42,687 bases of DNA from Rhodothermales bacterium (lineage in GTDB: Bacteria > Bacteroidota > Rhodothermia > Rhodothermales > VXPQ01): assembly GCA_040904565.1 (NCBI GenBank), contig JBBDTI010000033.1:1-42687 (forward strand), in the 5' to 3' direction. Below, piece by piece: positions 5,185 through 36,305 of this stretch. The stretch's first letter is position 1, and every line of letters begins with the position of its first letter. The notes beneath the pieces are model-generated. The model was not told where the DNA came from, did no database searches, and saw only the letters and a program-made list of their open reading frames with translations. The translations under genes were made by a program, and so were the position numbers.

Positions 5185-5408
5185 TCGAAGTCACCGTTCT
5201 TCTGGAGCCGAGACTTGCGCTCCTCATAGTCCTCCGTCGAAATCTCGCCGGCTGCATACCGCTGCTCGAGTACCTCAAGCGGAGTTTTTCGTCGGGGTCT
5301 CGTTGAGCGGCTTCGGGCAATTAAGAGGACGATCGCCACGGTGGCGACAATCCAAAGGATCAACCACCCCCAGTGCATGCCCCACATCCAGTCGTGTCCG
5401 TTAAACAT
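5181..5408 (-). CDS. SHOCT-domain small membrane protein
   Basis: GHDWMWGMHWGW N-terminus, one TM helix, TPLEVLEQRYAAGEISTEDYEERK SHOCT motif. Confidence 0.9.
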   Translation of the reverse strand: MFNGHDWMWGMHWGWLILWIVATVAIVLLIARSRSTRPRRKTPLEVLEQRYAAGEISTEDYEERKSRLQKNGDFE

Positions 5409-5450
5409 GGCTATATTTCTGGCAAGTCAATTGGCGTAACGATGATGCCC

Positions 5451-5633
5451 TTATCGTGAAAGCCGGCGTCTCCGTTCTTCGTACTCCTCCGTAGTTAGCT
5501 TCCCCGATGCGTACTGGTGCTGGAGCTTTTCGAGTGATGTTTCTTTCTCCTCGGTGCTCGGCATGAGGCCTGGCGCCAGGCGTAGAAGCATGACGAGCAC
5601 GACGATGAGCAGTATCGACCAGAAGATCATCAT
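5451..5633 (-). CDS. SHOCT-domain small membrane protein (second paralog)
   Basis: One TM helix plus SLEKLQHQYASGKLTTEEYEERRRRL. Confidence 0.8.
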   Translation of the reverse strand: MMIFWSILLIVVLVMLLRLAPGLMPSTEEKETSLEKLQHQYASGKLTTEEYEERRRRLSR

Positions 5634-5686
5634 ATGATGGGTCTTGCCGTGAGACGATTGTTCGGGACCCGACGGCAGCGACGGGA

Positions 5687-6454
5687 TTATCGGTGATGTT
5701 GACCTCTCGGCGCAGCGTCCCTTTGCATCGCGCCTTGATCCATCATGCCACCTTGCATCATGCCACCTTGCATCATGCCACCGTTCATCATACCGCCATG
5801 CATCTTGTTCATCATCTGCATCATGTCCATCATCGACATGTTTTGCATCATGTGACGGTGCATGTCGGCGGGCTCCATCTCGCCGAGTGCGTTTTGCTGT
5901 TCGGTGGAGAGCACATTCTTCATCTGCTGCGAGATGGCAAACATCGAGGCCTGCATCTCCGCATGGGCTTCGGCCGAACTCTTAAGTAAGGACGCAACCC
6001 TGGAGGCATCCGGCTCTTCCTGCGCCAGCAGATCGTCCAATTCCGACCTCCTTTCCTTCATACGTTCGGCGAGATCGGCGTGGGAGGCCATGAGGTTCTC
6101 ATGGAGCCCTTTCAGCCGGTCGACCTGAGCCTCATTTAAGTTCAACGGCTCCTGCATCGTTGGAAGCATGTGGACGAGCATCATGGCGCGGTGCATCGGC
6201 TGCTGCATCATACCCGTCATGCCTCCGCCCATTCTCGACCCTTGCATGCCTGCGCCTTGCATCCCGTCCATCATGTCGCCCATGTCGCCCGCATGCATTG
6301 CCTGCATCATCATCATACATGCCTGCATGCCTTCGCCGGACATGTCCATCATTCGCTGGTTCTCTTGCATAGCGTGATTTTCGCCCTGCTGTGCCGCGGC
6401 CGGCGCGGCCACGAATAGAGCCAGTACGATTGCGAATCTCGATAACGTTTTCAT
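5687..6454 (-). CDS. Met-rich periplasmic Spy/CpxP/ZraP-like protein (putative metal sensor or chaperone)
   Basis: Start MKTLSRF with an AGGTGA RBS; signal peptide AAA-Q; LTxxQ-like motifs LNLNEAQ and VLSTEQQ; about 20% Met by manual count. Confidence 0.8.
   Translation of the reverse strand: MKTLSRFAIVLALFVAAPAAAQQGENHAMQENQRMMDMSGEGMQACMMMMQAMHAGDMGDMMDGMQGAGMQGSRMGGGMTGMMQQPMHRAMMLVHMLPTMQEPLNLNEAQVDRLKGLHENLMASHADLAERMKERRSELDDLLAQEEPDASRVASLLKSSAEAHAEMQASMFAISQQMKNVLSTEQQNALGEMEPADMHRHMMQNMSMMDMMQMMNKMHGGMMNGGMMQGGMMQGGMMDQGAMQRDAAPRGQHHR
5741..5800. repeat. Four 15-nt tandem repeats encoding x-G-G-M-M
   Basis: catcatgccaccttg twice exactly, then catcatgccaccgtt and catcataccgccatg. 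Confidence 0.85.
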
Positions 6455-6467
6455 TGATATCACCTAT

Positions 6468-6671
6468 TCATTTGTCTTCTGTAATGGTGGTGTCGCGACC
6501 GGGCCGGTGGAACGCTTCGCGTCGTGCCGGATGCCGGTCGCTGCTTCTTCGCACGTTGCTTCGCTCGCTCTCCTCTTCGTCAATCGAACAATCGAGCCAG
6601 ACCCAGCAGAGCAGCAGCAGCGTGATCCATAATGCGATACCGACAGCGAACCATGTCATCATACTGGGCAT
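6468..6671 (-). CDS. Small hypothetical single-TM protein, possibly the first gene of the copper operon
   Basis: Hydrophobic N-terminus (WFAVGIALWITLLLLCWVW) and charged tail; lies between operator B and the Spy-like gene. Confidence 0.45.
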   Translation of the reverse strand: MPSMMTWFAVGIALWITLLLLCWVWLDCSIDEEESERSNVRRSSDRHPARREAFHRPGRDTTITEDK

Positions 6672-6719
6672 CAGGCAGTGGAGGAGTGTTTCGGTCTGAC
6701 TAGAACTTCGCCAATCGTG

Positions 6720-6758
6720 CCTGAAACGAACCTTAATACCGGCTTAAAATCCTTTCAG
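6720..6758 (-). promoter_or_regulatory. Tandem 11-bp-periodic response-regulator box (copy B), upstream of the copper operon
   Basis: + strand CCTGAA-acgaa-CCTTAA-taccgg-CTTAAA-ATCCTTTCAG; same spacing as 461-499. Confidence 0.7.
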
Positions 6759-6871
6759 CCGCGTGACGCATGTGTTACGGATGCACGTTCAGACTGACGG
6801 TGCGCCCGGAATTCCTGGATTGAAGAAGTCGCTCCTGCGATTCATTTCGAATACTAGATAGCCCTCATACT

Positions 6872-6908
6872 CTTAAATCAGGCTGAACCGTGTCTTAAAC
6901 TTTGTTAA
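6872..6908. promoter_or_regulatory. Third copy of the direct-repeat box, upstream of the response regulator
   Basis: CTTAA (6872), CTGAA (6883) and CTTAA (6894) at exact 11-bp spacing, then GTTAA (6904). Confidence 0.55.
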
Positions 6909-6994
6909 GGTCTGAAACATTGCGGGCCCATGGGGTTCTCGTATCTGGGCGTGTTGGATCACGAAAGGTCATTTGGACAGAACGACCCGTAATC

Positions 6995-7696
6995 ATGTGG
7001 ATTCTGCTGATCGAGGACGAGGAGCGGCTCGCGAATTCCCTGGCGACCGGCCTTGAGGAGGAGGGCCACGTTGTGGACGTGTCCGGCGATGGAATCGAGG
7101 GCCAATCCATGGCGATGGTCAACGCCTATGATGCCCTGATCGTCGATTGGCGCCTACCGGGACGAGACGGTAAGGCAGTCATCGAAAACGTGCGCGAGGC
7201 TGGACGGAAGTATCCCATCCTCATGCTGACGGCGTTGGGTGACGTGGAGCACCGCGTACAGGGTCTCGATGCGGGAGCCGACGACTATCTTCCGAAACCC
7301 TTCAAGTTCGAAGAACTGCTCGCCCGGTTGCGCGCCCTCCAGCGAAGGCCCCCGTTGGCCGCTCAGGACGACGTTCTGTGCGAAGGATCGCTGGAGGTTG
7401 ACACAAAGCGTCGGCAGGCCGCGCTGAACGGAAACCGCCTCGACCTCCGTCCGAAGGAATTTGCCCTCCTGGAAGATTTCATGCGGCACCCACAAGAGGT
7501 TGTCTCGCGCACCGTAATTGCCGAGCGGGTGTGGGGCGATCCGTTTTACGTCAGCGATAACGTGATCGATGTCACCATATCCGGCCTTCGCCAAAAGCTA
7601 GACGATGCGTACGACGCCGATACGCCGAAGGTGCGGATCGAAACGATTAGAGGCGTAGGCTACCGGCTCGTTAACGACGCGGGATCAGCCGAATAA
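6995..7696 (+). CDS. OmpR-family response regulator (CusR/CzcR-like)
   Basis: Start reassigned to MWILLIEDE; phospho-Asp in IVDWRLPG; GLDAGADDYLPKPF; winged helix ending IETIRGVGYRL. Confidence 0.93.
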   Translation: MWILLIEDEERLANSLATGLEEEGHVVDVSGDGIEGQSMAMVNAYDALIVDWRLPGRDGKAVIENVREAGRKYPILMLTALGDVEHRVQGLDAGADDYLPKPFKFEELLARLRALQRRPPLAAQDDVLCEGSLEVDTKRRQAALNGNRLDLRPKEFALLEDFMRHPQEVVSRTVIAERVWGDPFYVSDNVIDVTISGLRQKLDDAYDADTPKVRIETIRGVGYRLVNDAGSAE

Positions 7697-7700
7697 AGCC

Positions 7701-9119
7701 ATGCTGAAGCTGCGCACGGATCTCAGACTTCGCATTTCCACACGCCTCACGCTGTGGTACGGGCTGACGTTGCTCATCCTCTTGAGTCTGTTTGCGCTCT
7801 TTAGTTACCTCTATTTCCACACGAGTCTGCATCGCGATTTTGACCGCCACCTCGCTCACGAGAAGCGGCAGCTGATGCCGTTTGTCCGGACGACCGGCGA
7901 CGTTCCGACGTTCGCCGGACTGAGCGAGCTTCGTTCCGTCGCGTACCAGACCGACGGCGTCTATGGGACGTACGTTCGACTGGCCGATGCGGACGGCGGG
8001 GTCGTCTACCGAAGTCCGAACTTCGAGAACCACGATCCGTTGCCTCTCGATTCGCCCGATACGCGGGAGGAGGCGACGCTCAGTCGTGTATGGGAGGGAG
8101 ATCCCATTCGGAGTGTGTACACGCCAATTTTCGACTCTGATGGAGGGCTTCACGGCTGGTTGGAGGTGACCGGCTTCGAGTGGACGCTGCACCAGGAACT
8201 GGAGAACCTCCGTGTATCCATGCTGGTCAGCATCGTGCTCGGTGTAATTCTAGCTATCGGAGGGGGGTATATGCTCGCTCGACGAGCCCTCCATCCGGTA
8301 GCGTCTCTCACAGAAGCCGCGAAGGAGATCCACGCGACGGATCTGAGCACGCGTTTGCCGACGAGCTTCGGCGTGCGGGACGAGCTGACTGATCTCGCAG
8401 AAACGTTTAACAACATGATCGAGCGGTTGGAGGCTTCGTTCGATCGAGAGCGCCGCTTCACGAATAACGCGGCGCACGAGATTCTTACGCCGCTGGCAAC
8501 GATCCGCAACAGCGCCGAGATTGCCCTTCGACGTGGTCGGACATCCACGGAGTATCAGGAGACAATCCGAAATATCCTGGCCGACGCCGAAGAGATGACG
8601 GATACGGTTAGAGGTCTCCTTCAGCTCGCCCGCGTAGATCGCATTCAAGAGCTGTCGCGCGAAAACATCGATCTGTCGGCGGCGGTCGAAAGGCACGTTG
8701 CCAGGGTGCGCGAAAGAGCACGACGGGAGGGGATCGAGCTCGCGGTGAATGTGGACCCTGGCGTGACGATCCTTGCCGACGAAGGTCACGTCGGTGAAGT
8801 AGTCACTAATCTGGTGGACAATGCTGTCAAATACACGCCGCGAGGAGGACGGGTGGATGTCTCTGTGCGGCGTGTCGATGGAAAGGCCCGGCTCGTCGTG
8901 TCCGACACGGGCGTCGGTTTCGAGCCTGAACAGGCCGAGCACCTTTTCGACAGGTTCTACCGCGCCGACGTGCCGGAAGTGCAGGCGCGGAGCGGCAGCG
9001 GGCTGGGACTCGCCATTGTCAAGGCCATCGTGTCGGTCTATGGCGGCCGGGTGACCGCCGTCAGCGAGGGTATTGGGAAGGGCAGCACGTTCGTTGTGGA
9101 GCTCCCCACGGTTTCCTGA
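7701..9119 (+). CDS. Heavy-metal-type sensor histidine kinase (CusS-like; HAMP-HisKA-HATPase)
   Basis: RLTLWY N-terminus, two TM helices, HAMP domain, H-box AAHEILTPL, NLVDNAVKYT, DTGVG, GSGLGL. Confidence 0.93.
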   Translation: MLKLRTDLRLRISTRLTLWYGLTLLILLSLFALFSYLYFHTSLHRDFDRHLAHEKRQLMPFVRTTGDVPTFAGLSELRSVAYQTDGVYGTYVRLADADGGVVYRSPNFENHDPLPLDSPDTREEATLSRVWEGDPIRSVYTPIFDSDGGLHGWLEVTGFEWTLHQELENLRVSMLVSIVLGVILAIGGGYMLARRALHPVASLTEAAKEIHATDLSTRLPTSFGVRDELTDLAETFNNMIERLEASFDRERRFTNNAAHEILTPLATIRNSAEIALRRGRTSTEYQETIRNILADAEEMTDTVRGLLQLARVDRIQELSRENIDLSAAVERHVARVRERARREGIELAVNVDPGVTILADEGHVGEVVTNLVDNAVKYTPRGGRVDVSVRRVDGKARLVVSDTGVGFEPEQAEHLFDRFYRADVPEVQARSGSGLGLAIVKAIVSVYGGRVTAVSEGIGKGSTFVVELPTVS

Positions 9120-9201: not shown

Positions 9202-10392
9202 TTAATCCGGGTGATGACGAGGGGTCGGCACCGGGGTTCGATCCACTCTTGCGTCACCGAGCCTATTGCCGTGGTCGTCGAAAACGACCCGTCCGGTCAC
9301 GCCGTCCCCATCGATTTTTGCCAGCGCCTTTCGAATCTTGTCGTGGTCCAGCCCACCTGAGCGAATCGCTTCGATAACGGCCCGGGTACCGTCGTATGAG
9401 TAACCGGCGGCGACGTGCGGCTGCCTTCCGAATCGCTCGCTATAACGCTTCCTGAAGGAAACGTAAGTCTTCGTTTCAGGGATACGGAAGGTGGTGAAGA
9501 GAAATCCCCCTTCTCGAGCGACCGCGGAGAAGGATGGATCTGATAGAGAGACGGGACCGAACAGGGAAGGGCGCACGTCCGTCGCCGCGAGTTCGCGTAC
9601 GAACCCTTCTGCCGCTTGATGGCTGCTGAAGAGGACGACAGCGTTTATGGGCGTTCGCCGGATCGTGGAGACAGCATGTTTTACCAGAAGACGGTGTTCG
9701 ATGCTGCGCCCACGCTTCGCCGCTTCATCGGCGAAGACAGCCTCTGCCGCTTTTGCATCGGAGGTTTTGTCTCGGACCGTGGCCATGCGTGCATCGGCAG
9801 GAATCGTACGAAGGAGCATCTCCGCCTGCCGCCTGTCGTCGGGCACGACGCGAAACATCCATGGGACGTATGCCCCCGTAAGAGTGGGATCAGAGGCCCA
9901 CGGAGTGACGAACACGACGCGTCGCTTGGTCACAATTTGTTCGATGAGATGCGCCTCGCGACCGCCGATACCCCCGAGCACGGCCCAGACGGGCTCATCG
10001 AAGACGAGACGAACGATCTCGCTGCTGCCGGCGCCCCAGGCACCCTGAACCGTTCGCACGATGAGCTCAAACGGCCGACCCGTGTATCCGCCATTCGCGT
10101 TGGCATCGGCGACGGCGAGCTCCGCTGCATTACGGACTGCAGCGGCTACCTCAGCGTGAACCTGGTTACCAGGCAGAAGAAGGCCAATCTTCACCGTCTG
10201 CGTCTGCCGTTCACGCGTCGGAATCCGCGATGCACCTGCCTGCAGCTGCGATGCACGCATTTTCACCTGTGCCTCCCTCGGAAAGGTCTGCGACATCTCC
10301 ATTTGAAACATCAGTTCCTGCGATGAGACCTTCCGTGCGGGGCCCATCAGGAAAAAAAAGAGGACAAGAACGATGAGGCCTCGCCTACACAT
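9202..10392 (-). CDS. Branched-chain-amino-acid-type (LivJ/Peripla_BP_6) solute-binding protein
   Basis: Signal peptide; VKIGLLLP, ANANGGYTGRPFELIV, SDPTLT, GVTGRVVFDDHGNR. Confidence 0.85.
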   Translation of the reverse strand: MCRRGLIVLVLFFFLMGPARKVSSQELMFQMEMSQTFPREAQVKMRASQLQAGASRIPTRERQTQTVKIGLLLPGNQVHAEVAAAVRNAAELAVADANANGGYTGRPFELIVRTVQGAWGAGSSEIVRLVFDEPVWAVLGGIGGREAHLIEQIVTKRRVVFVTPWASDPTLTGAYVPWMFRVVPDDRRQAEMLLRTIPADARMATVRDKTSDAKAAEAVFADEAAKRGRSIEHRLLVKHAVSTIRRTPINAVVLFSSHQAAEGFVRELAATDVRPSLFGPVSLSDPSFSAVAREGGFLFTTFRIPETKTYVSFRKRYSERFGRQPHVAAGYSYDGTRAVIEAIRSGGLDHDKIRKALAKIDGDGVTGRVVFDDHGNRLGDARVDRTPVPTPRHHPD

Positions 10393-10569
10393 ACATCGTG
10401 TTGATGATTACGGTGAATTCGCGTACGGCCCCTCTCGTTCGCTACGGGCGATGCGCGGTGCATATCGGTTGGAAGGGTGAACTCACGCCGGATGCTGACG
10501 GCCGATGTCACGCCGGACGGGCGGCAGATCGGGACGGGTTGGGAGAGCTCATGCCCGGATCAAGACCCG

Positions 10570-11874
10570 CTATCGATCCGGCAGCGGCGACGGGATGAAC
10601 TCGAACGTTCCGTCCTTCAGCCGCGCCAGCATAACCGGCCCGATGTCGTTCCGGGTCGGATCGAGGATAATTTCCCCCGTTATCCCGTCGAACCGATGGT
10701 AGGAAGTAAGGACGTCGCGAATACGCGTGCGATTGAGTCCACTTCGCTCGATACTCTCCAGGATCAGGCGCATGCCGTCGTATGCGTGTGCGGCAACCCA
10801 GTCGGGTTTTTCGCCGAAACGCGCCGCATACTTGTTGAAGAACGATACTCTATCGGCATCCTTTCTTCCCGGATCGTAGGGATAGGCGGCAACCAGCCCT
10901 ACCGCAGCCTCCCCCGCGTTGGCGATGAACGAAGGCTCGACGATGCGGTCGTTGGCGTAGACCGGAAGCTCGATTCCCATTTCGCGCATCTGTTTCAGAA
11001 TAAGGGCGCCTTCCTCCGGGTCCGTCCAGAGCAGCAAGGCATCCGCCGAGGATTTCTCGATGCGATCCAGCTGCCGCCTAAAATCGGTATCCCCCTTTTC
11101 GTAACGAAGTTCGAAAAGTAATGGGTGACCGAGCCGGCGCGATCCGTCTTGAAACTCGACCACGCCTACGCGACCATACCGATTGTTCACGCGCAAGACC
11201 GCGACGCGCTGATGCCCCATAATCTTATACACATACCACGCCAGGGCGTAGCTCATCTGCCGGTCGTCGGCATTGACGCGGACGAGCCAGGGAATCCGCG
11301 TCTCGGTGAGGGTCGGGTCCGTCGATCCGCTGGTCACGATCGGGAGTTCCGCCTTCAGGGCTGCTCGGAGTGCGATGTGGGTGCTCTGCCCATCGATCGA
11401 ACCGAGAACCGCCCAGACGCTCTCGTCGTTCAGCTCGACGAGCTTGTTGCTGGAAGCGCCCCAGGGCCCGACGTCGTTACGGACGACGAGCTCGTAGGGC
11501 AGCCCGCCATATCCTCCTTGCTGGTTAGCCTCTTCGATCGCGATCGCCGCACCGCCGAGCATGCGTTCGCCGAGGTATGCCTCGTGAGACTCAGCGAGCG
11601 GCGCGAGTACGCCGATTCTCACACTTTCCAGATTAGCCGGAGGGGCTTTCTCGCGTCCGCTACCCAGAAAAGGCTGCTCATAAATGAAGAACGACTTGTA
11701 GTGGTCGTGGAATCGGTCGTACGGGCGCATTTCGACGGGCGTGCCCGCATAGGGGCGCACCTGTTCGTTCGAAGAAGCCTCCTTCGATGCAGCGTCCTGA
11801 CCGCCGGCAGGGGACAGTCCGCCGATCACGAGACCGATCACGACGAGGGAGAACGCGATTCGCCGTGCGATCAT
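10570..11874 (-). CDS. Branched-chain-amino-acid-type solute-binding protein (second paralog)
   Basis: Start reassigned to MIARRIAF (ATGA overlap with the Rid stop codon); VRIGVLAPL, ANQQGGYGGLPYELVVRND, STDPTLTE, GITGEIILD. Confidence 0.88.
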   Translation of the reverse strand: MIARRIAFSLVVIGLVIGGLSPAGGQDAASKEASSNEQVRPYAGTPVEMRPYDRFHDHYKSFFIYEQPFLGSGREKAPPANLESVRIGVLAPLAESHEAYLGERMLGGAAIAIEEANQQGGYGGLPYELVVRNDVGPWGASSNKLVELNDESVWAVLGSIDGQSTHIALRAALKAELPIVTSGSTDPTLTETRIPWLVRVNADDRQMSYALAWYVYKIMGHQRVAVLRVNNRYGRVGVVEFQDGSRRLGHPLLFELRYEKGDTDFRRQLDRIEKSSADALLLWTDPEEGALILKQMREMGIELPVYANDRIVEPSFIANAGEAAVGLVAAYPYDPGRKDADRVSFFNKYAARFGEKPDWVAAHAYDGMRLILESIERSGLNRTRIRDVLTSYHRFDGITGEIILDPTRNDIGPVMLARLKDGTFEFIPSPLPDR

Positions 11875-12458
11875 CTCGATCCCTCGGATTTCTTTCGCTG
11901 TACGGCGATAGCCTCGATTTCGACGAGCAGCTCCGAACGGCAGATGCGGGCCTGGATCGCGGTGCTGGCCGGAAGCGGATCGAGTGCGAGCCATCCGTAA
12001 AACCTGTTCCGGATATCGTTGAAGTCGCCGTAGTCACGCTCGATGTCGCGGAGGTAACAGGTCGTACGCACGATGTCGTGCCAGGTAAGGTCTTCGGCTT
12101 TCAGAAGCTCGGTGATGTTTCTAAAGGTTCGCCAGAGCTGCGCGCGAAAATCACCGACGTGAATGGTGTCGCCCTTCTCATCGACGCTTGCAGTACCGGA
12201 GACGAGCACGACCCTGGTATCGGAGATGTCGAAAGCGAGGGCTCTAGAAAATGCGGATCCATAGTCGTATGCCTCATTTAGAACGCTTTGAGCTACGACG
12301 GCACGGCGGGCTACGGAGGGTCCTCCATCCGGCCGAGGAGGCGCAGATAGAGGTTCACCGCGGGATGAATGAAGCCCGATTCGCCTCATCTCGTCATCTT
12401 CCGCGGTCGTTCCGGTGTCCAAATCTGCTTTACTTTCGATTACGGCATTCATCGACAT
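11871..12458 (-). CDS. Rid/YjgF-family protein resembling the FkbO/Hyg5 chorismatase C-terminal domain
   Basis: SAFSRA, VSGTASVD, CYLRD, PAST and ICRSELLVEIEAIA motifs. Confidence 0.85.
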   Translation of the reverse strand: MSMNAVIESKADLDTGTTAEDDEMRRIGLHSSRGEPLSAPPRPDGGPSVARRAVVAQSVLNEAYDYGSAFSRALAFDISDTRVVLVSGTASVDEKGDTIHVGDFRAQLWRTFRNITELLKAEDLTWHDIVRTTCYLRDIERDYGDFNDIRNRFYGWLALDPLPASTAIQARICRSELLVEIEAIAVQRKKSEGSR

Positions 12459-12482
12459 TAAACTATCTGTGAGGTTATCCGC

Positions 12483-13700
12483 TCAATTAAACTGTATGTC
12501 GAGGGAGTCGACTGGAATGGTACGGTCGGGCGTCCCCTTCGAGACGCCGTGATGTGTTGCAACCCATACCGTGTCTCCCTCAAAGTCGACGCCGAGCACA
12601 AAATTATGGCTGAGCGCCGTCGCGGTGTTAATCCGCCGAAGTGTGTTGCCCGTCTCATCGTAGACGGCCATCTGACCGCGTCCGTCGGGTAGTCGCGTGT
12701 AGGTACGCCAGATCCGCCCGTCGAACACACTCAGGCCGCGATCCGTGCAAAGAAAGCCGACCGACTCGTCCGTTCGGACGTAATTGATGAAGTTGGATGC
12801 AAGTCCGCTGTCGTCGTCGAAATATCCCTTCCATCGTGCGCCGTCGTACAGGCTGAGGCCGAAATACGTCGCTGCCCACACGATTCCGTTTCCGTAAGAG
12901 ACCGAAGAAATGATGTCGTGGACCAGTCCGTCATCCGGGAAGATGTCCAGCTCCATTTCGCCGTCGGGATCGACGTAGTCCCTCCAGCGCTCCGTTTTCT
13001 TATTCCATTCCAACAGTCCTCCGCCCCAGGCGCCGACGTAAATCTTATCGCCGCCCGCGGCGAGCGCGTAGGTCCAGGGCTCGTGCATGGGGGCGTTCTG
13101 CTCGTTGTGGATTCGCCACCGGCCGGTGTACACGTCAAGATCACTCGCACCGGCCGCGGTAGCCGCCCATACGTGATGTCCGTCGACCAGAACCCCATAG
13201 ACCACGTTGTTGGCCAGACCACTGTTTAACTGGGTATACGTCTCCGTGCGGCCGGCGGAGATGCTCGTCAATCCGGCCATGGTTCCAGCCCACACGGTCC
13301 CCGTAGTGGAATCGACATCGAGCGTCAGTACACTGTCGTGAGCGAGCCCGTCGTCCGTCGTGTAGACGCGCTGCACGCGACCGTTTTCGTAGAGCGCCAG
13401 ACCCTCATCGGTACCGAACCAGACGCGGTCGCCGTCCACCCGCACGCTGAAGACCTTCTCCCCAGGAAGACCGTCGTCGGTCGTCAACGTCTCCCAGCGA
13501 TATACGACGGGGGGCGTCGGCGTGAGGTCGGACAGCCGCTCGGACGATGCCGTGGCAGTAGTTCCGCCGTCTGCCGGCGAGGCGGAGTGCTCCTGCACGG
13601 GGGCCGGCGACGTCATCTTCATCAACCCCGCAGTCCCTACCAAAACGAACAGGGTTGCCGCAAGCACCAGATACATTCGGAGGTCCTCGTTCATGGTCAT
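12483..13700 (-). CDS. Stand-alone Reg_prop (two-component regulator propeller) beta-propeller protein, N-terminally anchored
   Basis: Repeats TTDDGLP...VWFGTDEGL, NSGLANNVV, DSGLASNFI; N-terminal hydrophobic segment; no kinase domain. Confidence 0.8.
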   Translation of the reverse strand: MTMNEDLRMYLVLAATLFVLVGTAGLMKMTSPAPVQEHSASPADGGTTATASSERLSDLTPTPPVVYRWETLTTDDGLPGEKVFSVRVDGDRVWFGTDEGLALYENGRVQRVYTTDDGLAHDSVLTLDVDSTTGTVWAGTMAGLTSISAGRTETYTQLNSGLANNVVYGVLVDGHHVWAATAAGASDLDVYTGRWRIHNEQNAPMHEPWTYALAAGGDKIYVGAWGGGLLEWNKKTERWRDYVDPDGEMELDIFPDDGLVHDIISSVSYGNGIVWAATYFGLSLYDGARWKGYFDDDSGLASNFINYVRTDESVGFLCTDRGLSVFDGRIWRTYTRLPDGRGQMAVYDETGNTLRRINTATALSHNFVLGVDFEGDTVWVATHHGVSKGTPDRTIPVDSLDIQFN

Positions 13701-13704
13701 CTGA

Positions 13705-15726
13705 TCAATCGGTCGGAGGGGGCGCGAGTGTCTTCAAATACTCGACCAAATCGTTGAGCTGGTTCTTCCCTAAATCGCTGACCACCCCGTGCTCGTCGTT
13801 TACGCTGTTTTCCGTCCAGATCTGTTCGAGCGTTGACGCGCTGCCGTCGTGCAGATAGGGTGCCGTGTCGTAGATATTCACCAGCTGCGGGGTGTCGAAC
13901 AGGACGCCGGGCGTGTCGGCGCTTCGGCGAGTGCCGACGTCGAACTTTTTCCCGTTCGTGAAATAGGTACCGCTATGGCACGTACTGCATCGGCCTGCCG
14001 GCTCGATGGGTACTCCGGTGAGCGTTTCCGCACGCTCGAAGATGTTCTTGCCGCGCTGCTGCTCTTCCGTAAGCTGCTTTTCGTTGATCCGCCGGTGGCG
14101 GTTGGGAGGTGCCGGGATCGAGTATACGTAGGCGACGAGCGCCTTCAGGTCGTTTTCGGGAAAGACGGCCATGCGCGTCAGAAATTTCGCGAAGCGGACG
14201 CCGTCCTGCATGTACAGGCTCGTATTCGTACCGGTCCACTTGAACGGAGCGGTTGCGCCGATGTCGCGCAGCGTCATCGTATTGACGACGTTTTTCCCGA
14301 TGCCGTCTCCTCCAAAATCCCAGGAAAGCCCATCTTGATCGCCGTCCGGATGGCAGCCGCGGCAACTGAACTGTCGCTGAAACGCGCGCGCGGTATGAAA
14401 TATCTGTGCACCTCGACGAACGACGGTCACCTCATCCGGTCCGCCAAGGGCGATGGAGTCAACCGGCTCCAACCGATCGGTGTCGACGACTAGAATACGG
14501 TCGTCGAGGCGCTCCGCGATGTACAGTTTCTTACCGTCGGGTGAAAGGGCCAGGCCTTTCGGATTGTATCCCGTCGGAATCCTGGCTGTCACGAAGCGGC
14601 TACTCATGCCGAGATGGTTAGGGAGGATGCGGAGGCTGTCCTCGGTCGCGTCCTCTACAACACGGCGAATCGCGTCCACATTGAGAACACTCACGGTTCG
14701 GGCGGCTGCGTGCGTCACGTACGCTTGCCGCCCGTCGGGCGAAATAAGCACGTCGTGTGGATCGGCGTAATAGGCATTGGCGTCGTCCGTCAGCAGCTGA
14801 AGGACTCGCTGCTGGCCGCTCCGTTCGATGACCCCGATGCCATAGGTGAGCATCCATCCGCGATGGAGCTGCGTGCTCGGAATGAGATTTTTCGGACGAA
14901 CGAGCGTAGTAAGGGCGAGATCGCCCTGTGGTGTAAAATCAACGCCCTCCACTACGTGGGCGCCCTCCAATGCCTTTCGGTCGGCGATGCGGCCGGACTG
15001 TGTGTCGACGACGGTGATTTCGGTCTCGGGCGTGTCGCGCATGTGCGAGCTCGCCCGAACGAGGCGATTCGTCACATAGACTTGCCTGCCATCCGGCGAT
15101 AAGGCGACGGCGTATGGATTGTTGCCGGCCGGGAGCCGATGATCTTCTCGTCCGGCTTCCAGGTTGACGACAGAGATATCGTCCGAGTACATGTTGGCTA
15201 CGTACAGGAAACGCTGGTTTCGGTCGAGCGCCAGACCGGACGGGCCACTGCCTACGGGCAGCACGCGTACTACGTCACGGCTCTCGAGATCGATCTCCGA
15301 CACCGTGTCGGACCAGCCGTTACTCACGTACGCCATCGTGCCATCGCGCGTAAGAGCGACGCCGTACGGTCGTCGGCCTACCGGGATCCTCCCTTCGACG
15401 CGGTTCTCTTCCGTCGAAACGACGAGGAGGGCTTCTTCCTCTTCGGCCACGACGTACAACTCCGTCCCCGACGGATTGACCGCGAGCGCTCCAGGCGACA
15501 CGTATTCTTTCTCGAAGAAATGCTTTACCAGGGTTTGCCGGCCCATATAGCCGTGGCACGAAACGCAGTTCGGAGAGGCCGGCGTACCACCCGTCACGTA
15601 TAAAACATGGTCCCGGGCCGCACGGAGGGCGAAAAAGGCGGCGATGACGAGTATCAGCACTCCCGACCAGGCCATTAAAACTGGCCTGTGTAACCTGTTA
15701 TTCCGTAGGGAATCAGTCCCTTTCAT
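13705..15726 (-). CDS. YVTN beta-propeller plus di-heme cytochrome c peroxidase/MauG-like fusion with an extra N-terminal heme (HzsB/C-like architecture)
   Basis: Start reassigned to MKGTDSL (15726); TM anchor; CVSCH; YVxN repeats (AYVSNG, LYVANM, VYVTNR); CRGCH...TAPFKWTG; CSTCH...DTPQLVNIYDTAPYLHDGSA...LVEYLKTL. Confidence 0.85.
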   Translation of the reverse strand: MKGTDSLRNNRLHRPVLMAWSGVLILVIAAFFALRAARDHVLYVTGGTPASPNCVSCHGYMGRQTLVKHFFEKEYVSPGALAVNPSGTELYVVAEEEEALLVVSTEENRVEGRIPVGRRPYGVALTRDGTMAYVSNGWSDTVSEIDLESRDVVRVLPVGSGPSGLALDRNQRFLYVANMYSDDISVVNLEAGREDHRLPAGNNPYAVALSPDGRQVYVTNRLVRASSHMRDTPETEITVVDTQSGRIADRKALEGAHVVEGVDFTPQGDLALTTLVRPKNLIPSTQLHRGWMLTYGIGVIERSGQQRVLQLLTDDANAYYADPHDVLISPDGRQAYVTHAAARTVSVLNVDAIRRVVEDATEDSLRILPNHLGMSSRFVTARIPTGYNPKGLALSPDGKKLYIAERLDDRILVVDTDRLEPVDSIALGGPDEVTVVRRGAQIFHTARAFQRQFSCRGCHPDGDQDGLSWDFGGDGIGKNVVNTMTLRDIGATAPFKWTGTNTSLYMQDGVRFAKFLTRMAVFPENDLKALVAYVYSIPAPPNRHRRINEKQLTEEQQRGKNIFERAETLTGVPIEPAGRCSTCHSGTYFTNGKKFDVGTRRSADTPGVLFDTPQLVNIYDTAPYLHDGSASTLEQIWTENSVNDEHGVVSDLGKNQLNDLVEYLKTLAPPPTD

Positions 15727-15745
15727 ACGCCACCACATCTGCATA

Positions 15746-17143
15746 CTAATCGGGAAGCAGCGATACTGCGGGCTCGTCGAAGGCCTGCTTGACCAGGTTG
15801 TCCGGGACCAGCTCGCGATTTTCATGGCAGCCGATGCAGCCTCGACGTTCGTTGGGTCGAACCCATAGCCATTGAGACGGTCCGCGCACCACTTCACCGG
15901 CATCGTTCAGCGTCTCGAAGCGAAGTGGCGTATCGTGCGGCACCTCCAGCCGAAACGAACCGTCCGAATGCACGGGCACGTCGGCGAGAACGCCGGTCAC
16001 CCCGCGAATGCGGATCGTAACGGTTGGACCCGGCGCTTGAGTAACCAGCGTCGATCGATCGGCGTCCATGGCATATAATTCGGCCGGATGGGACGAATCG
16101 ACGATGCTCACGAAACTCTCAGGTTCGAATCGTGGAGCAGCTTCAACCGGCTCGACGGCATGAACCTTTTCGTCGTGTGTGAGTCGTGCGCCGAGTTCGC
16201 CGGTCTCGGGATCGAACATGTAGAGGGCAAACGGCTCTTGTTCCGTGTCTCGATAGGATACAATCCATCGGTTTTTTCCGGCTGGATAAACCGAGTGGAA
16301 TCCCTCGAGGCTCGGCGCAAGATCCCGATACGAGTGCAGCGGGCGATCGTCCCTGACGGAGACGAGTCGGCCGGCCTGGGCGTCTCGATCCGACTTCTCG
16401 ACGAAGATGAGTCTGCGATCCTCCGTCTCCCGCGCACGCGACGGGAGCCATGCCCCCTCCTGACTTTCGTAGTACAATTCAACGCCGGTCCCGTCATAGC
16501 GCATCGCCAGTAATTGCGAGGCGCTCGGGCCGTTGGAGGGGCCGGACCGGTTGCTAGCGAAGAGGATACGGTTGTCTCGCAGTGCGACGGAGGCGTAGTC
16601 CGCATCCGGATGGAAGGATATGCGCTCGAGGCAGCAGCCGTCCAGTCCGCTGGTGAAGAGCGCCAGGGTGCGCCCTTCTTCCGGGCGATCCTCGAGGATC
16701 GGCGCCATTGCACTAAAGGCGATCAGTCCTCCGGGAAGGTACGTTGGGTCGGCGCATCCTTCGAGGCTCTGAGCGAAACGACGTGTTGTTCCTCCGTCGA
16801 GCGGTCGCTCCCATATTTGCCAGGCGCTGCTGTCGGACGTACGTCCCGCAAAGAGAAGGCGCTTCCCATCGAATGAAATCTCCGGTGCCCTGGCCGCAGC
16901 GAAGCCGGGAGTCAAGATCTGGGGATTGGCGGCTGGATTCGCGGGATCGACCGCCACGATGCGGCTGTTTTCCGGAAAAAGCTGGTTCGGGTCGGCCTCG
17001 GCCGGCACTTCCGTATAGACGATGAGATTGCTTCCTTCACGATTGCCCCCGCCCTCCTGAAACGGCCTGTTTACGGCGAGGAGGGTCAATACGACGACTC
17101 CGGTCAAAAGAGCGGGTAACAAGCCTCTTCTGGATCTCACCAC
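15746..17143 (-). CDS. HzsA-related protein: TolB-like propeller plus hydrazine-synthase alpha middle domain with one CxxCH
   Basis: APEISFDGKRLLFA, DPTYLPGGLIAFS, DNRILFASNR, MRYDGTG; C-terminal VPVHSDGSFRLEVPHDTPLRFETL...WLWVRPNERRGCIGCHE matches the HZS-alpha middle-domain pattern as I recall it. Confidence 0.8.
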   Translation of the reverse strand: MVRSRRGLLPALLTGVVVLTLLAVNRPFQEGGGNREGSNLIVYTEVPAEADPNQLFPENSRIVAVDPANPAANPQILTPGFAAARAPEISFDGKRLLFAGRTSDSSAWQIWERPLDGGTTRRFAQSLEGCADPTYLPGGLIAFSAMAPILEDRPEEGRTLALFTSGLDGCCLERISFHPDADYASVALRDNRILFASNRSGPSNGPSASQLLAMRYDGTGVELYYESQEGAWLPSRARETEDRRLIFVEKSDRDAQAGRLVSVRDDRPLHSYRDLAPSLEGFHSVYPAGKNRWIVSYRDTEQEPFALYMFDPETGELGARLTHDEKVHAVEPVEAAPRFEPESFVSIVDSSHPAELYAMDADRSTLVTQAPGPTVTIRIRGVTGVLADVPVHSDGSFRLEVPHDTPLRFETLNDAGEVVRGPSQWLWVRPNERRGCIGCHENRELVPDNLVKQAFDEPAVSLLPD

Positions 17144-18882
17144 GTTCCCCCCGAATCAGTGACGGCACTACCGGACGGCTCTTCCTCGATCCGCACGAAC
17201 TGGTTGATCGGTATATTTTCCAGCACCTGTACGGTCCCCGACGGCCAGCGAATCTCGATTCGATCGACGATCTCCGCCTTTCCGAGCCCGAAATGCATGC
17301 GCGGGTCGTTCGTCGAGAGGTATCCGCCGGCACTTTCTTTAGGTGCGGACTGCACCTTTCCTCCGGCCGTCACTTCTACGAGGGCACCGACTCCGTCGCG
17401 GTTGCTCTCGCTACCGGCGAGCGCCACGGTGATCCAATGGTTGCCCTGGAGGTTCTCGTTCCTGAGCAGGACGGCCCGTTCGTTCAGGTTGACGATAAGA
17501 ACGTCCACGTCCCCGTCGTTATCATAGTCGCCGAAGGCCGCACCGCGAGAGACCCATTCAGACTGGAAGTGCCGGCCACTTTCGATCGAGACATCCAGGA
17601 AGGACCCGTCCCCCTGATTCTCGAAGAGCTGATCCTCATGCCCAAAGAGGTGATTCAAATCCCCATTGACCTTGAAGATGTCTACGTCCCCGTCGTTATC
17701 GTAGTCCATGAAGGAGGAGCCCCATCCGTCGTACTGGCCGCTGAAAGCCGCGATGCCGGAGGGTACCGTAACGTCGGAGAAGAGTCCGCCGCCTTCATTG
17801 CGGTACAGCGCACTAAAGTGAATGTCGCTGACGAAGAGATCCGGCCGGCCGTCTCCATCGTAGTCGGCGAAGTCGACAGCCATACTGGAGGTTTCTTCTC
17901 CTCCTTCACTGAAGGCAACGCCGGAACGATAACTGACGTCATCAAAACGACGTCCGAGGTCGTTGCGAAAGAGATAGTTGGCCATCGCATCATTGGCAAC
18001 GTAGATGTCGACGTATCCGTCTCTGTCGTAGTCGGCGGCGGCAACGCCCATCATGCGACCTTCGGGGCGGTAAAGCCCCATCTCCTTGGTGACGTCGGCA
18101 AAGGTGCCGTCACCACGGTTGCGGTATAGGACATCGGGCTGTCCGGCATAGGACGTTGGAGGAGGAAAGGCATCCGGAGCATAGTAAGAGGTGTACTCGG
18201 CGTCGTATTCGAGATAGTTTCCTACGTACAGGTCGAGGTGCCCGTCGTTGTCAAAATCGAGCCAGACTGCTCCTACGGTATTAGCGTCACCTCGAAGGCC
18301 GGCCTTCTTCGCCACGTCGGTGAACGTGCCGTCCCCATTGTTTCTGAAGAGCACGTTCGGCCCGTAGTTGCACTGAAGGATGTCCGGGTAGCCGTCGTTG
18401 TCGTAATCAGCCACGGCCACACCCATCCCGAAGCCTTTCTCGTCGGCTACTCCCGCACGATGCGTCACGTCCTCGAAGTATGCGCCCTCGTGATTCCGAT
18501 ACAGCCGGTTGCGGGGTAGTTGCGACGGCCGCTCGCCCGAGCTCACAGACTCCATAAACGTATTGTTGGCGATGTAGACGTCCATCCAGCCGTCTTGATC
18601 GTAGTCCAGGAAAGCCGCTCCGCTGCCCACCGTCTCGACAATGTTTGATAGATCGCCGTCTCCGATCGAGTGAACGATGTCAACGCCGACGTATTCGGTC
18701 ACGTCGACGAAGTAGGCGCCTTCTTCGCTCGGAGCTGGTCCGCGGTCGGTCGGACCGGTCATGGTCGCGTGCTCGGACGACGGCGTGCAGCCGGCCGTGG
18801 CAAGCGCGACCATCAATAGCACGCCGGACATCGAGAGCGCAACGCGCGTGTCGCAGGCAGACGGGGACGTTATCAGGGACAT
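17137..18882 (-). CDS. CRTAC1-family protein (FG-GAP/VCBS Ca-binding repeats plus ASPIC/UnbV domain), probable lipoprotein
   Basis: Repeated DYDxDGxxD motifs; SNRDGVGALVEV, GYLSTNDPRMHFGLG, IEIRWPSG; ATAGC lipobox-like motif. Start uncertain (18882 or 18831). Confidence 0.9.
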   Translation of the reverse strand: MSLITSPSACDTRVALSMSGVLLMVALATAGCTPSSEHATMTGPTDRGPAPSEEGAYFVDVTEYVGVDIVHSIGDGDLSNIVETVGSGAAFLDYDQDGWMDVYIANNTFMESVSSGERPSQLPRNRLYRNHEGAYFEDVTHRAGVADEKGFGMGVAVADYDNDGYPDILQCNYGPNVLFRNNGDGTFTDVAKKAGLRGDANTVGAVWLDFDNDGHLDLYVGNYLEYDAEYTSYYAPDAFPPPTSYAGQPDVLYRNRGDGTFADVTKEMGLYRPEGRMMGVAAADYDRDGYVDIYVANDAMANYLFRNDLGRRFDDVSYRSGVAFSEGGEETSSMAVDFADYDGDGRPDLFVSDIHFSALYRNEGGGLFSDVTVPSGIAAFSGQYDGWGSSFMDYDNDGDVDIFKVNGDLNHLFGHEDQLFENQGDGSFLDVSIESGRHFQSEWVSRGAAFGDYDNDGDVDVLIVNLNERAVLLRNENLQGNHWITVALAGSESNRDGVGALVEVTAGGKVQSAPKESAGGYLSTNDPRMHFGLGKAEIVDRIEIRWPSGTVQVLENIPINQFVRIEEEPSGSAVTDSGGTW

Positions 18883-19195
18883 CTTCAGCAAACAGGTAGA
18901 AGATAGATGCGCGTGCACCGGGATCGGCTAGATCTCAGGATGGCAGACTGGACGGGACGCCGGCTCGGCGGGCATCAAACGAATCTCGCGACTGTGTCGA
19001 TTGAAGCCTATCGAAAGTATCGCTGCAATCCTGTGGAGGAATTACGCGATCCGATGTAGGATAATGGACCACATCACGGCGCACGGTTTCCGTCCGAAAT
19101 CGCCGGCGAAGCTGGGATCCGTCGCCGCACCTGGATACTCGCCTGCGGTCGTTCACCGTTCCGAGGGTCTCACAAGCAGAGAAAAGAGCTCTTCG

Positions 19196-31118: not shown

Positions 31119-31137
31119 AAACGTGAACACAAGCGCT

Positions 31138-36251: not shown

Positions 36252-36305
36252 CGGGATGGTTTCGGTTATGAATCGATGTTAGCGAAGGATGATTTCGGAG
36301 CGCCG

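Follow-up and report, generated by a model that had tools for sequence, protein, structure and literature searches.

We find that a seven-gene cluster in a Rhodothermales bacterium encodes, at its center, true homologues of the hydrazine synthase (HZS) subunit HzsA and of fused HzsB/HzsC. The cluster lies on a contig of 42,687 nucleotides (assembly GCA_040904565.1, contig JBBDTI010000033.1), the whole of which we refer to as "the window", and it is a real, widely conserved operon. Judged from profile scores and residues, the enzyme composed of the A-like and BC-like proteins is not a hydrazine synthase. We put at roughly 55% the probability of our preferred reading, namely a membrane-anchored, periplasm-facing four-heme complex that has the HZS architecture and is not a hydrazine synthase; a peroxidase/MauG-like mechanism for it, taken alone, is less likely than not. 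An earlier note on this DNA had implied that the cluster was novel; that implication has to be withdrawn, as clusters of this type are already published as HZS-homologue "clade III" by Hägglund et al. (2025, Genome Biol Evol, PMC12758564; here and below, statements about this paper refer to part of its main text).

All seven open reading frames (ORFs) that the earlier note had listed as co-oriented are present on the minus strand, at 9202-18918 (ORF calls with Pfam and NCBIfam profile searches). From upstream to downstream, they encode a CRTAC1-family protein with an FG-GAP/VCBS propeller and an ASPIC/UnbV domain, a probable lipoprotein (17137-18882; the earliest possible start is 18918, and 18882 corresponds to Met13); the HzsA-like protein of 465 residues (15746-17143); the HzsB/HzsC-like fusion of 673 residues (13705-15726, extendable to 15903); a membrane-anchored Reg_prop-type beta-propeller protein of 405 residues (12483-13700); a Rid-superfamily protein of about 172 residues (11871-12389; a start at 12458 is possible, and comparison with homologues places the true start at 12389); and two LivJ/HAAT-type periplasmic binding proteins, of which binding protein 1 (10570-11874, within an ORF of 10570-11994) has a signal peptide at the chosen start and binding protein 2 (9202-10392) is more divergent. 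The CRTAC1 and A-like genes overlap by 7 nt, the A-like and BC-like genes are 19 nt apart, the BC-like and Reg_prop genes 4 nt, and the Reg_prop and Rid genes 93 nt (24 nt with the longer Rid start); the Rid gene overlaps the gene of binding protein 1 by 4 nt, and 177 nt separate the two binding-protein genes. The description of these genes as mostly overlapping or under 25 bp apart thus fits 4 of the 6 junctions, or 5 with the long Rid start, and the export signals or anchors ascribed to all products but Rid can be read from the sequence as an N-terminal hydrophobic helix or lipobox in every cluster protein except Rid. Among the ORFs scanned in the window, we saw no HAO-type gene, in agreement with the earlier note, no nitrogen-cycle genes, and no PQQ or quinoprotein genes. 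An OmpR-type response regulator (6902-7696) and a HAMP histidine kinase (7701-9119), both assigned by Pfam and encoded on the plus strand, are convergent with the end of the operon and are possible, though unproven, regulators of it. Among the best 80 of 586 related loci, 22 have a similar regulator and 25 a similar kinase upstream of their CRTAC1 gene. The identities to the window copies (38-44% for 22 full-length regulator matches, and 26-31% for 24 kinase matches with the remainder weaker) are at a level generic for such families.

The HzsA-like protein consists of an N-terminal anchor helix, a TolB-like propeller, and an HZS_alpha middle domain, in which its one CXXCH heme motif lies (C436/C439/H440). 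A search with the HZS_alpha profile, which had been proposed as a check, gives 61.1 bits against a cut-off of 26.6 (PF18582), the only match in the whole genome, and the hydrazine_alpha profile NF052339 gives 98.1 bits against an equivalog cut-off of 800. By sequence search the protein matches 5c2v_A with E 7.9e-20. Its AF2 model (pLDDT 89.5, helix at 9-30) has 5c2v_D (E 6.1e-24) and 5c2v_A (E 7.4e-24, TMq 0.74) as top Foldseek matches. The chain stops 25 residues past its sole CXXCH, and the heme alpha-II domain is absent; no Tyr occurs in the tail after C436-x-x-C439-H440, and a Gln is aligned to alpha-Cys303 in the 5c2v_A alignment. Exactly one CXXCH is present in each of the 63 A-like family members, 61 of which lack a Tyr within 8 residues after it.

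Four parts make up the HzsB/HzsC-like fusion: a transmembrane anchor, an N-terminal heme site (H40, C54/C57/H58), a 7-bladed YVTN propeller, and a CcP/MauG/HzsC-like di-heme domain (C455/C458/H459 and C580/C583/H584, with W497 and H646). Its scores are 201.5 bits for hydrazine_BC (NF052342, cut-off 1250), 173.1 bits for hydrazine_beta (NF052340, cut-off 560), and 82.4 bits for hydrazine_gamma (NF052341, cut-off 625); CCP_MauG (PF03150) passes marginally at 30.1 bits against 25.6, with no single stretch passing alone, and NF040606 and TIGR03791 reach 21.1 and 22 against cut-offs of 150 and 444. Sequence searches match the fusion to both 5c2v_B (E 7.8e-42) and 5c2v_C (E 1.5e-17), and Foldseek places 5c2v_B at the top for its AF2 model (E 1.8e-34, TMt 0.91, rmsd 2.5; pLDDT 81.6, helix at 13-45). 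The models of both proteins are heme-free, and that of the fusion falls below pLDDT 50 at 472-479, 493-519, and 590-612, where residues of the di-heme domain are interpreted. The three CXXCH motifs, W497, and H646 are each conserved in 71 of 71 BC-like members. The second heme of the di-heme module is probably bis-His ligated through the invariant H646, as in HzsC, and the N-terminal heme is probably bis-His ligated by H40 and H58, at the membrane. In the alignment to 5c2v_C, W497 is opposite gamma-His144, D508 opposite gamma-Cys165, and F512 opposite gamma-Asp168, the last two placements being less certain than that of W497 since they come from a gapped stretch of one pairwise HMMER alignment.

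The A-like and BC-like proteins are predicted to form a heterodimer, with a score of 0.61 versus 0.00 for the best of 3 controls, which agrees with the interface that had been claimed between them. The ipSAE was 0.61, 0.67, and 0.59 across three runs, with a partner pLDDT of 84 and at least 80% of contacts common to the runs. Of 80 solved complexes, 58 reach the pass mark, as do 2 out of 110 mismatched pairs; these counts apply only approximately here, since we supplied our own alignments. The predicted interface comprises residues 190-191, 215, 219-220, 435, and 443-447 of the A-like protein, flanking its CXXCH, and residues 279-294 (aligned to the HzsB loop region), 449-450, and 510-521 of the BC-like protein, the latter two segments flanking the first CXXCH of the di-heme domain. 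Across 71 BC-like and 63 A-like sequences, many of the interface positions do not vary. The pass may be owed to the model's memory of the solved 5C2V complex; it speaks for likeness and does not prove that this copy binds.

Among 586 related genome loci, the best 80 show this gene order again, as the co-occurrence claim had anticipated, and the recurrence puts the arrangement far beyond chance. Carriers among these 80 belong to Rhodothermales, Gemmatimonadota, Bacteroidota, and other phyla; many are, to judge by their record titles, Bacteroidales and Rikenellaceae metagenome-assembled genomes, which are assumed to be from anaerobes. Counting only loci with enough flank among the best 80, the A-like gene is present in 69/70, a CRTAC1 homologue is directly upstream of the A-like gene in 64/64, and the Reg_prop gene is downstream of the BC-like gene in 68/68. 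The genes of binding proteins 1 and 2 are present in 59/59 and 49/53 loci, the Rid gene in 52/67, and the six-gene core in 44/49. Most relatives also have a DAHP synthase gene between the two binding-protein genes, which is absent from the window.

The accessory proteins are recognizable by family. The CRTAC1 protein scores 184.7 bits for FG-GAP_3 and 81 bits for UnbV_ASPIC in Pfam and carries a lipobox-like LATAGC; two paralogues in the same genome stand next to c-type cytochromes (51777-53939 with 53971-55791 on C92, and 5096-7897 with 7894-9606 on C17). The Reg_prop protein matches Pfam Reg_prop at 24.3 bits, and every one of its neighbours in the Atlas is a "hypothetical protein" cluster of Reg_prop type. 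Binding protein 1 (Peripla_BP_6, 147.8 bits) has 3td9, 4mlc, 4gnr, 3hut, and 4ey3 as nearest solved structures and no paralogue elsewhere in the genome besides binding protein 2, to which it is 30% identical; the latter scores 108.1 bits for Peripla_BP_6 and has weak PDB matches only, the best being 4gnr at 38 bits. ABC permease or ATPase genes were found neither among the scanned window ORFs nor among the conserved neighbours, and outside the window the genome has two BPD_transp_2 genes, on C91 and C79.

The Rid protein belongs to the Rid/YjgF superfamily (Ribonuc_L-PSP, 71.6 bits against a cut-off of 27.3), has no signal peptide, and has a conserved N-terminal extension. It reads PAS opposite the PAR of 2dyy_A and 1qah_A, which places a Ser at the essential-Arg position of RidA, an Arg that we take to be Arg105 of E. 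coli RidA, which binds the substrate carboxylate. The consensus of 49 cluster-linked Rid proteins has no conserved Arg here, and their alignment shows conserved motifs. With the essential Arg replaced and TIGR00004 at 54.8 bits, below its cut-off of 106, we rejected an assignment as a RidA enamine/imine deaminase. Of the dedicated accessory set proposed in the earlier note, the conservation alongside the central pair stands, and the handling of a reactive periplasmic imine by Rid is doubtful, given the missing signal peptide and the Ser in place of Arg.

The closest relative with a solved structure is the HZS of Kuenenia stuttgartiensis (PDB 5C2V/5C2W). The window pair resembles it in the TolB-like propeller and heme-bearing middle domain of alpha, the 7-bladed YVTN propeller of beta, the CcP/MauG-like di-heme domain of gamma, the beta loop segment at the alpha interface (here predicted), the equivalent heme motif positions, and a total of four c-hemes per protomer. 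The proposal that the adjacent pair has an HZS-type alpha/beta/gamma architecture with touching subunits is supported by the sequence matches to 5c2v_A, 5c2v_B, and 5c2v_C, the fold matches (TMq 0.74, TMt 0.91), and the predicted complex. The active sites are another matter. For HZS, part of PMC12607021 gives the roles of His587/Zn and Tyr591 at the alpha-I site, describes those of the three Cys links and Asp168, and proposes Asp168 as the proton source in hydroxylamine formation. Unlike HZS, the HzsA-like protein lacks both the C-terminal bis-His heme alpha-II cytochrome domain and the alpha-I arrangement of a proximal Tyr591 with His587 bound to a zinc shared with Cys303; its heme has a canonical His ligation motif, and alpha-Cys303 is replaced by Gln. 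The gamma-I pocket (Cys165 as third covalent link, distal Asp168, and His144) is not retained either, with gamma-His144 replaced by Trp and, less certainly placed, gamma-Cys165 by Asp and gamma-Asp168 by Phe. The beta-gamma fusion further differs by its extra N-terminal heme and transmembrane anchor, alpha precedes beta-gamma in gene order, and the neighbours are CRTAC1, Reg_prop, Rid, and binding-protein genes instead of anammox genes. These catalytic differences are consistent with the suggestion of chemistry other than anammox; the N-N or N-O coupling that the earlier note offered as a possibility is speculative.

A genuine hydrazine synthase was accordingly considered and rejected. For a cryptic one, performing anammox-type N-N bond formation outside Brocadiia, to be encoded here is very improbable: common ancestry and architecture are all that speak for it, the equivalog scores (98 vs 800, 201 vs 1250) and the single HZS_alpha match in the genome argue against it along with the missing alpha-II heme and the replaced alpha and gamma residues, and clades I-III were likewise judged not to be hydrazine synthases in PMC12758564.

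Our own reading is of a periplasmic heme enzyme with two sites, whose chemistry would be closer to that of a peroxidase or MauG than to NO reduction and for which we infer the catalytic direction and substrate class. The one-heme alpha-like subunit and the three-heme fusion would give four c-type hemes anchored at the membrane, and the two candidate catalytic hemes would face a common subunit interface that includes the beta-propeller loop. We tentatively suppose that the di-heme module works as MauG or the cytochrome c peroxidases of bacteria do, with an oxidant activated at its first heme; from there, a small intermediate or oxidising equivalents would cross the interface to a substrate near the alpha-like heme, with the putative bis-His relay heme (C580/H584 and H646) and anchor heme (H40, H58) passing electrons to or from the membrane side. 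Common to the module and the di-heme CcP/MauG/MbnH family are a pair of CXXCH motifs and a conserved Trp that lies between the two, and the di-heme peroxidase 1iqc matches residues 604-668, around a PYLHDG motif. The module differs from that family in its fusion to a propeller, in having another heme protein as its partner, in a second heme that is probably bis-His ligated as in HzsC, and in family-specific NCBIfam scores that are all far under their cut-offs. The propeller scores 116.8 (cut-off 287) for the PQQ-associated TIGR03866 and 58.4 (cut-off 223) for the quinohemoprotein amine dehydrogenase beta family TIGR03907, both of which are, like it, 7-bladed propellers of YVTN type that occur in the periplasm alongside redox enzymes. 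Genes of TIGR03866 are also found together with those for LivJ-like binding proteins. CRTAC1, Reg_prop, and the two transporter-less LivJ-type binding proteins would be extracytoplasmic partners, possibly capturing an amino-acid-like or aromatic ligand, and the Rid-like protein, plus DAHP synthase in other genomes, would act in the cytoplasm. That the cytoplasmic Rid and DAHP synthase have no evident link to a periplasmic enzyme counts against this explanation, and carriers that are assumed to be anaerobic would have less evident use for a reaction driven by peroxide.

Three further explanations deserve weighing. It is rather unlikely that the complex is a reductive nitrogen-oxide enzyme, in which a gamma-I-like heme reduces NO (or nitrite/hydroxylamine) and the alpha-like heme processes the product, as a detoxification or respiratory side reaction amounting to the first half of HZS chemistry without hydrazine. 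In keeping with it are the homology shown to each of the three HZS subunits, a matching predicted layout of the two-heme interface, the Cys kept at the third heme link of gamma-I in some relatives, and the suggestion, in part of PMC10732223, that hzs-like genes form a wider family with alternative substrates. However, the window protein has Asp at that link and Phe opposite Asp168, His144 is replaced by Trp in every one of the 71 members, and no nitrogen-cycle genes were seen among the scanned window ORFs.

The invariant inter-heme Trp would also suit a MauG/MbnH-like maturase, whose di-heme module would convert a residue of the alpha-like, CRTAC1, or Reg_prop partner, by oxidation, into a protein-derived cofactor, the mature partner being the real catalyst or receptor. 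We consider this unlikely: the weak matches to MbnH (32.6 bits), a MauG-like family (27.9 bits), and MauG (22 bits), the amine dehydrogenase beta match of the propeller with 1jju_B in its Foldseek list, and several strictly co-conserved extracytoplasmic partners point toward it, but all family matches are far under their cut-offs, and the alpha-like subunit's own heme by the interface suits a small-molecule site better. Quite unlikely, finally, is a non-enzymatic electron-transfer or scaffold module of the cell envelope, whose hemes would do no more than exchange electrons with CRTAC1-type proteins or an external acceptor. The CRTAC1 paralogues adjoining other c-type cytochromes (on C92 and C17) and the BC-like anchor helix with its probably bis-His heme at the membrane would fit such a role, but four hemes distributed across two propeller proteins would conduct electrons poorly, the polar residues that do not vary are concentrated at the interface next to the hemes as those of an active site would be, and the nearest relative of known structure is an enzyme.

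We assign the locus to the clade III-type clusters by features listed in the text of PMC12758564 and not by tree placement. As described there, an FG-GAP gene stands upstream of a short alpha, followed by a fused beta-gamma that has one additional heme motif and, downstream, by two genes for ABC-type substrate-binding proteins; where HZS has gamma-His144, clades I-III have the Trp of CcP and MauG. In the window, the FG-GAP/CRTAC1 gene is likewise upstream of alpha and alpha upstream of the fusion, alpha lacks heme alpha-II and the C-terminal part, the fusion has its additional heme motif, the two binding-protein genes (10570-11874 and 9202-10392) lie downstream, and the Trp and the lack of a Tyr591 equivalent recur. 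The part of the main text on which we draw proposes no function for clade III, and in it we did not find the Reg_prop, Rid, and DAHP synthase genes or a Cys/Asp split at gamma-Cys165. Relative to that text, the new elements are the conserved Reg_prop and Rid genes in the cluster, the DAHP synthase gene that lies between the binding-protein genes elsewhere and is missing here, and the apparent split at the position aligned to gamma-Cys165, which is Asp in 58 and Cys in 13 of the 71 BC-like members. In the beta loop, 57 of the 71 relatives have Glu, whereas the window protein has His. Given this Cys and this Glu, some BC-like relatives may be closer to HZS chemistry than the window protein.

The window belongs to a genome assembly of 4.02 Mb in 95 contigs (94.9% complete), which we searched alongside it. 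Between positions 9202 and 18918 it carries seven co-oriented genes on the minus strand, and we assigned their products to families with Pfam and NCBIfam. First in gene order is a CRTAC1-type protein with FG-GAP/ASPIC matches (17137-18882), followed by a 465-residue HzsA-like protein (A-like; 15746-17143) that matches the HZS_alpha middle domain at 61 bits and the hydrazine_alpha model at 98 bits. Next comes a 673-residue HzsB/HzsC-like fusion (BC-like; 13705-15726), which scores 201.5 bits against the hydrazine synthase beta-gamma fusion model, 173 bits against beta and 82 bits against gamma. A Reg_prop propeller protein (12483-13700), a Rid-superfamily protein (11871-12389) and two binding proteins, both Peripla_BP_6 (binding protein 1, 10570-11874; binding protein 2, 9202-10392), complete the set. 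In this order, the first two genes overlap by 7 nt, the next three junctions are gaps of 19, 4 and 93 nt (the last shrinking to 24 nt if a longer Rid start is used), Rid and binding protein 1 overlap by 4 nt, and 177 nt separate the two binding-protein genes. Comparison with homologues set the start of Rid at 12389, and the signal peptide set that of binding protein 1 at 11874. The open reading frames and family matches confirm the seven-gene arrangement described in the earlier note, with two start codons slightly corrected. Every product except Rid has an N-terminal hydrophobic helix or lipobox, with helices modelled at residues 9-30 of the A-like and 13-45 of the BC-like protein, and the operon is a conserved unit of six extracytoplasmic proteins and one cytoplasmic protein. 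A scan whose consensus may not fit this phylum gave no excess of promoter-like sites (3 versus a shuffle mean of 3.5) or of terminator-like sites (8 versus 7.9), and an Atlas search with the Reg_prop protein matched only unnamed Reg_prop clusters. The sequencing runs listed comprise four DNA runs from sediment metagenomes of a single study, two of them possibly the source of this DNA, and no RNA run.

At the 3' end of the operon lie an OmpR-type regulator and a HAMP kinase (6902-9119, plus strand, convergent) and a CpxP/LTXXQ-like gene (5687-6463, minus strand), so that 5687-9119 looks like an envelope-stress-type regulatory set. Among the 80 related loci that we fetched, an OmpR-type regulator is found upstream of the cluster in 22 and a histidine kinase in 25, and the identity between the window's pair and theirs is at a level generic for such families.

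The homology of the A-like and BC-like proteins to anammox hydrazine synthase (HZS) is real. By sequence, the sole PDB match of the A-like protein is the alpha chain of the Kuenenia stuttgartiensis enzyme (5c2v_A, E 7.9e-20, in three stretches), and the BC-like protein matches the beta and gamma chains (5c2v_B, E 7.8e-42; 5c2v_C, E 1.5e-17); its C-terminal part also matches the di-heme peroxidase 1iqc, and its Pfam CCP_MauG match is marginal. AF2 models built from family alignments of 63 A-like and 71 BC-like members reached a pLDDT of 89.5 and 81.6, respectively. In Foldseek searches of the PDB, the A-like model retrieved 5c2v_D (E 6.1e-24) and 5c2v_A (E 7.4e-24, TMq 0.74), with TolB next at E about 1e-11, and the BC-like model retrieved 5c2v_B first (E 1.8e-34, TMt 0.91, rmsd 2.5 Å). 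The HZS architecture proposed in the earlier note is thus upheld by both the 61-bit HZS_alpha match and the fold comparison.

The pair is nevertheless not a hydrazine synthase: both are heme proteins with the HZS fold in which the HZS-specific catalytic residues are replaced, and both miss the NCBIfam equivalog cut-offs for hydrazine synthase by a wide margin. The A-like chain stops 25 residues past a single CXXCH and thus lacks the heme alpha-II domain; all 63 A-like relatives likewise have one CXXCH. No Tyr follows this motif in the window protein, nor is there one within 8 residues in 61 of the 63 relatives, and alignment to 5c2v_A places Gln at the position of alpha-Cys303; this precludes a Tyr591/His587-Zn site of the kind known from HZS (PMC12607021). 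In the BC-like protein the position of gamma-His144 is taken by W497 (Trp in 71/71), and alignment to 5c2v_C puts D508 at gamma-Cys165 and F512 at gamma-Asp168. All 71 BC-like members contain three CXXCH motifs, the extra one lying after the transmembrane anchor together with an invariant H40. The invariant H646, aligned to the "MHG" His of HzsC, is probably the distal ligand of the gamma-II-like heme. As in HZS, there are four hemes in total, but their distribution differs.

Two alignment columns vary within the family. At residue 508 (window about 14203-14205), which corresponds to HzsC Cys165, the Cys that makes the third heme link, 58 of the 71 members have Asp and 13 have Cys. In the beta loop, 57/71 have Glu at position 288, where the window protein has His. 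Two types of active site may exist within the clade.

Prediction of the A-like/BC-like complex gave scores of 0.61, 0.67 and 0.59, the best control scoring 0.00. The result lies above a pass mark that 58/80 solved complexes and 2/110 mismatched pairs reach; as the HZS complex is already solved, this pass may reflect likeness to it. The pLDDT of the partner was 84, and the runs had at least 80% of their contacts in common. On the BC-like side the interface comprises residues 279-294, which align with the HzsB loop region, and 449-450 plus 510-521, which flank the first di-heme CXXCH; on the A-like side it comprises 435 and 443-447, flanking the A-like CXXCH. Many of these positions are invariant in the family alignments, and the HzsB loop 245-260 has been placed at the HZS tunnel (PMC12607021). 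The prediction is of a heterodimer in which the flanks of two heme motifs and a beta loop would meet, in agreement with the interface anticipated by the earlier note, although an interface kept in the model does not imply that these copies bind.

The cluster belongs to a common clade. Of 8,000 candidates scored in a word-indexed search, 547 were full-length relatives (46-61% identity); the few that bore a name were Rhodothermales, Gemmatimonadota and Bacteroidota. In a species-representative genome collection, at least 599 stretches matched and at least 586 encode a relative; we fetched the best 80 of these loci, and since they are the nearest relatives, the figures below hold for this clade alone. 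The genes share one strand and follow the order CRTAC1, A-like, BC-like, Reg_prop, Rid, binding protein 1, binding protein 2. Where the flank is long enough to judge, A-like is present in 69/70 loci, CRTAC1 in 64/64, Reg_prop in 68/68, Rid in 52/67, binding protein 1 in 59/59 and binding protein 2 in 49/53. The six-gene core is complete in 44 of 49 loci, so the co-occurrence that the earlier note expected holds among the nearest relatives. Among the matches listed, the closest BC-like relatives are from Rhodothermaceae MAGs (61% identity), and the alpha-like family as a whole has 1,419 representatives at 50% identity with E <=1e-30. For comparison, a TPP enzyme encoded in the window retrieved names from Bacteroidota and Gemmatimonadota. 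As at least one cultured bacterium, Maribacter arenosus, carries the clade, its biochemistry is testable.

Its distribution is patchy. Across 151 same-phylum genomes searched with the A-like profile, the only full-length match (507 bits) was in the window's own genome, and the cluster was not found in the others, including 11 of the same order. Three genomes (G009, G037, G145) gave matches of ~96-101 bits within ORFs of 757-803 aa, which are longer HzsA-like proteins of another type, and one gave 94- and 55-bit matches inside a 1206-aa ORF; the remaining matches (41-59 bits) are confined to the profile's propeller part. The HZS_alpha Pfam domain was also matched in Bacteroides thetaiotaomicron, used as a control.

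Two further genes recur in the related loci. A type I-beta DAHP synthase lies between the binding-protein genes in 50 of 57 loci (e.g., L008:15357-16205), a bona fide assignment at 449 bits against the NF006421 cut-off of 335. The window has a 177-nt gap (10393-10569) at that spot instead, and the only strong DAHP synthase match of its genome is on contig C91. The gene might be a chance housekeeping neighbour. Of five carrier genomes checked, two have a second copy above the TIGR01361 cut-off, and in the other three the cluster copy is the sole match above it. Downstream of binding protein 2, a ~1,146-aa protein with TPR, FG-GAP and ASPIC parts is encoded in 40 of 49 loci (L008:2706-6146); it is absent from the window's cluster, and the same genome has two copies on contigs C72 and C58. 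This gene is often trailed by another CRTAC1 gene, and SusC-like and SusD-like genes lie upstream in 15/80 and 10/80 loci.

Elsewhere in the window's genome, about a dozen or more CRTAC1-type paralogues are spread over nine contigs. Two of them lie directly downstream of c554-like four-heme cytochromes (C92:51777-55791, locus L087; C17:5096-9606, locus L088 and its flank), which suggests a recurring cytochrome-CRTAC1 partnership. By motif count, four ORFs of 630-795 aa contain 7-8 CXXCH (C55:2319-4208, C67:34536-36704, C60:2-2242, C16:50580-52964). They are c554-like; that on C55 has a HEAT repeat and the other three are TPR fusions, and none of the four is recognisable as a hydroxylamine oxidoreductase. 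Within the window, 37475-38923 joins ice-binding-like, cohesin and type IX secretion C-terminal sorting domains in one protein, and 33707-37229 holds a TPP-dependent enzyme beside two 3-keto-disaccharide-hydrolase-like genes, with a sulfatase (26402-27982) and a TonB-dependent receptor (31057-33591) nearby.

Clusters of this kind have been described. Hägglund et al. (Genome Biol Evol, December 2025, PMC12758564) sorted co-localised alpha and beta-gamma homologues into clades I-IV. In their clade III, an FG-GAP/CRTAC1 gene precedes the alpha gene, the alpha protein is shortened, without heme alpha-II and with a gap at Tyr591, the beta-gamma fusion has one extra heme motif and Trp at the gamma-His144 position, and two ABC substrate-binding protein genes follow downstream; the window has every feature listed there. 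Reg_prop, Rid and DAHP synthase may already appear in its gene maps. The conclusion of that paper states that key residues are not conserved and proposes no function, and its top alpha matches included no protein of confirmed function. An earlier paper had suggested that hzs-like genes belong to a broader family acting on other substrates (PMC10732223). Only these two papers proved relevant in our literature search, which found none assigning a function; the accessible text of PMC9325076 holds nothing on non-anammox homologues.

As to function, the complex would be a two-site heme enzyme. Because of the conserved Trp, the C-terminal match to 1iqc and the marginal CCP_MauG match, a peroxidase or MauG-like oxidative mechanism is our best single guess, held tentatively at a probability of about 0.3; reductive N-oxide chemistry, protein maturation and pure electron relay rank after it. 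No paralogues of the binding proteins occur elsewhere in the genome and no transporter genes lie beside them, and their nearest solved relatives bind amino acids and, in some cases, aromatic acids, which makes delivery of a ligand plausible but unproven. The earlier note's interpretation stands in part: the HZS-type heme pair and its predicted interface are supported, but the proposal that Rid quenches a reactive periplasmic intermediate is unlikely as stated, since this is a cytoplasmic protein without the RidA arginine. A broader scenario, decidedly more speculative than the peroxidase or MauG-like guess, would make the A-like/BC-like pair an uncharacterised two-site heme enzyme found in Bacteroidota, Gemmatimonadota and allied phyla, with a new oxidative coupling or heteroatom chemistry whose substrate is an aromatic or amino-acid-derived metabolite. 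The binding proteins would bring in this substrate, and DAHP synthase and the Rid-like protein would supply or process it in the cytoplasm. More generally, c-type cytochromes of the periplasm would have CRTAC1 propellers as obligate partners, the two together making up a redox module not recognised so far.

The cluster is thus a genuine, uncharacterised enzyme system and no longer a discovery; the value of the window lies in confirmation and added detail. To our knowledge, hydrazine synthase was long thought to be without relatives. The accessory gene set is strikingly constant across the clade, and such non-anammox homologues are the only handle on the origin of hydrazine synthase.
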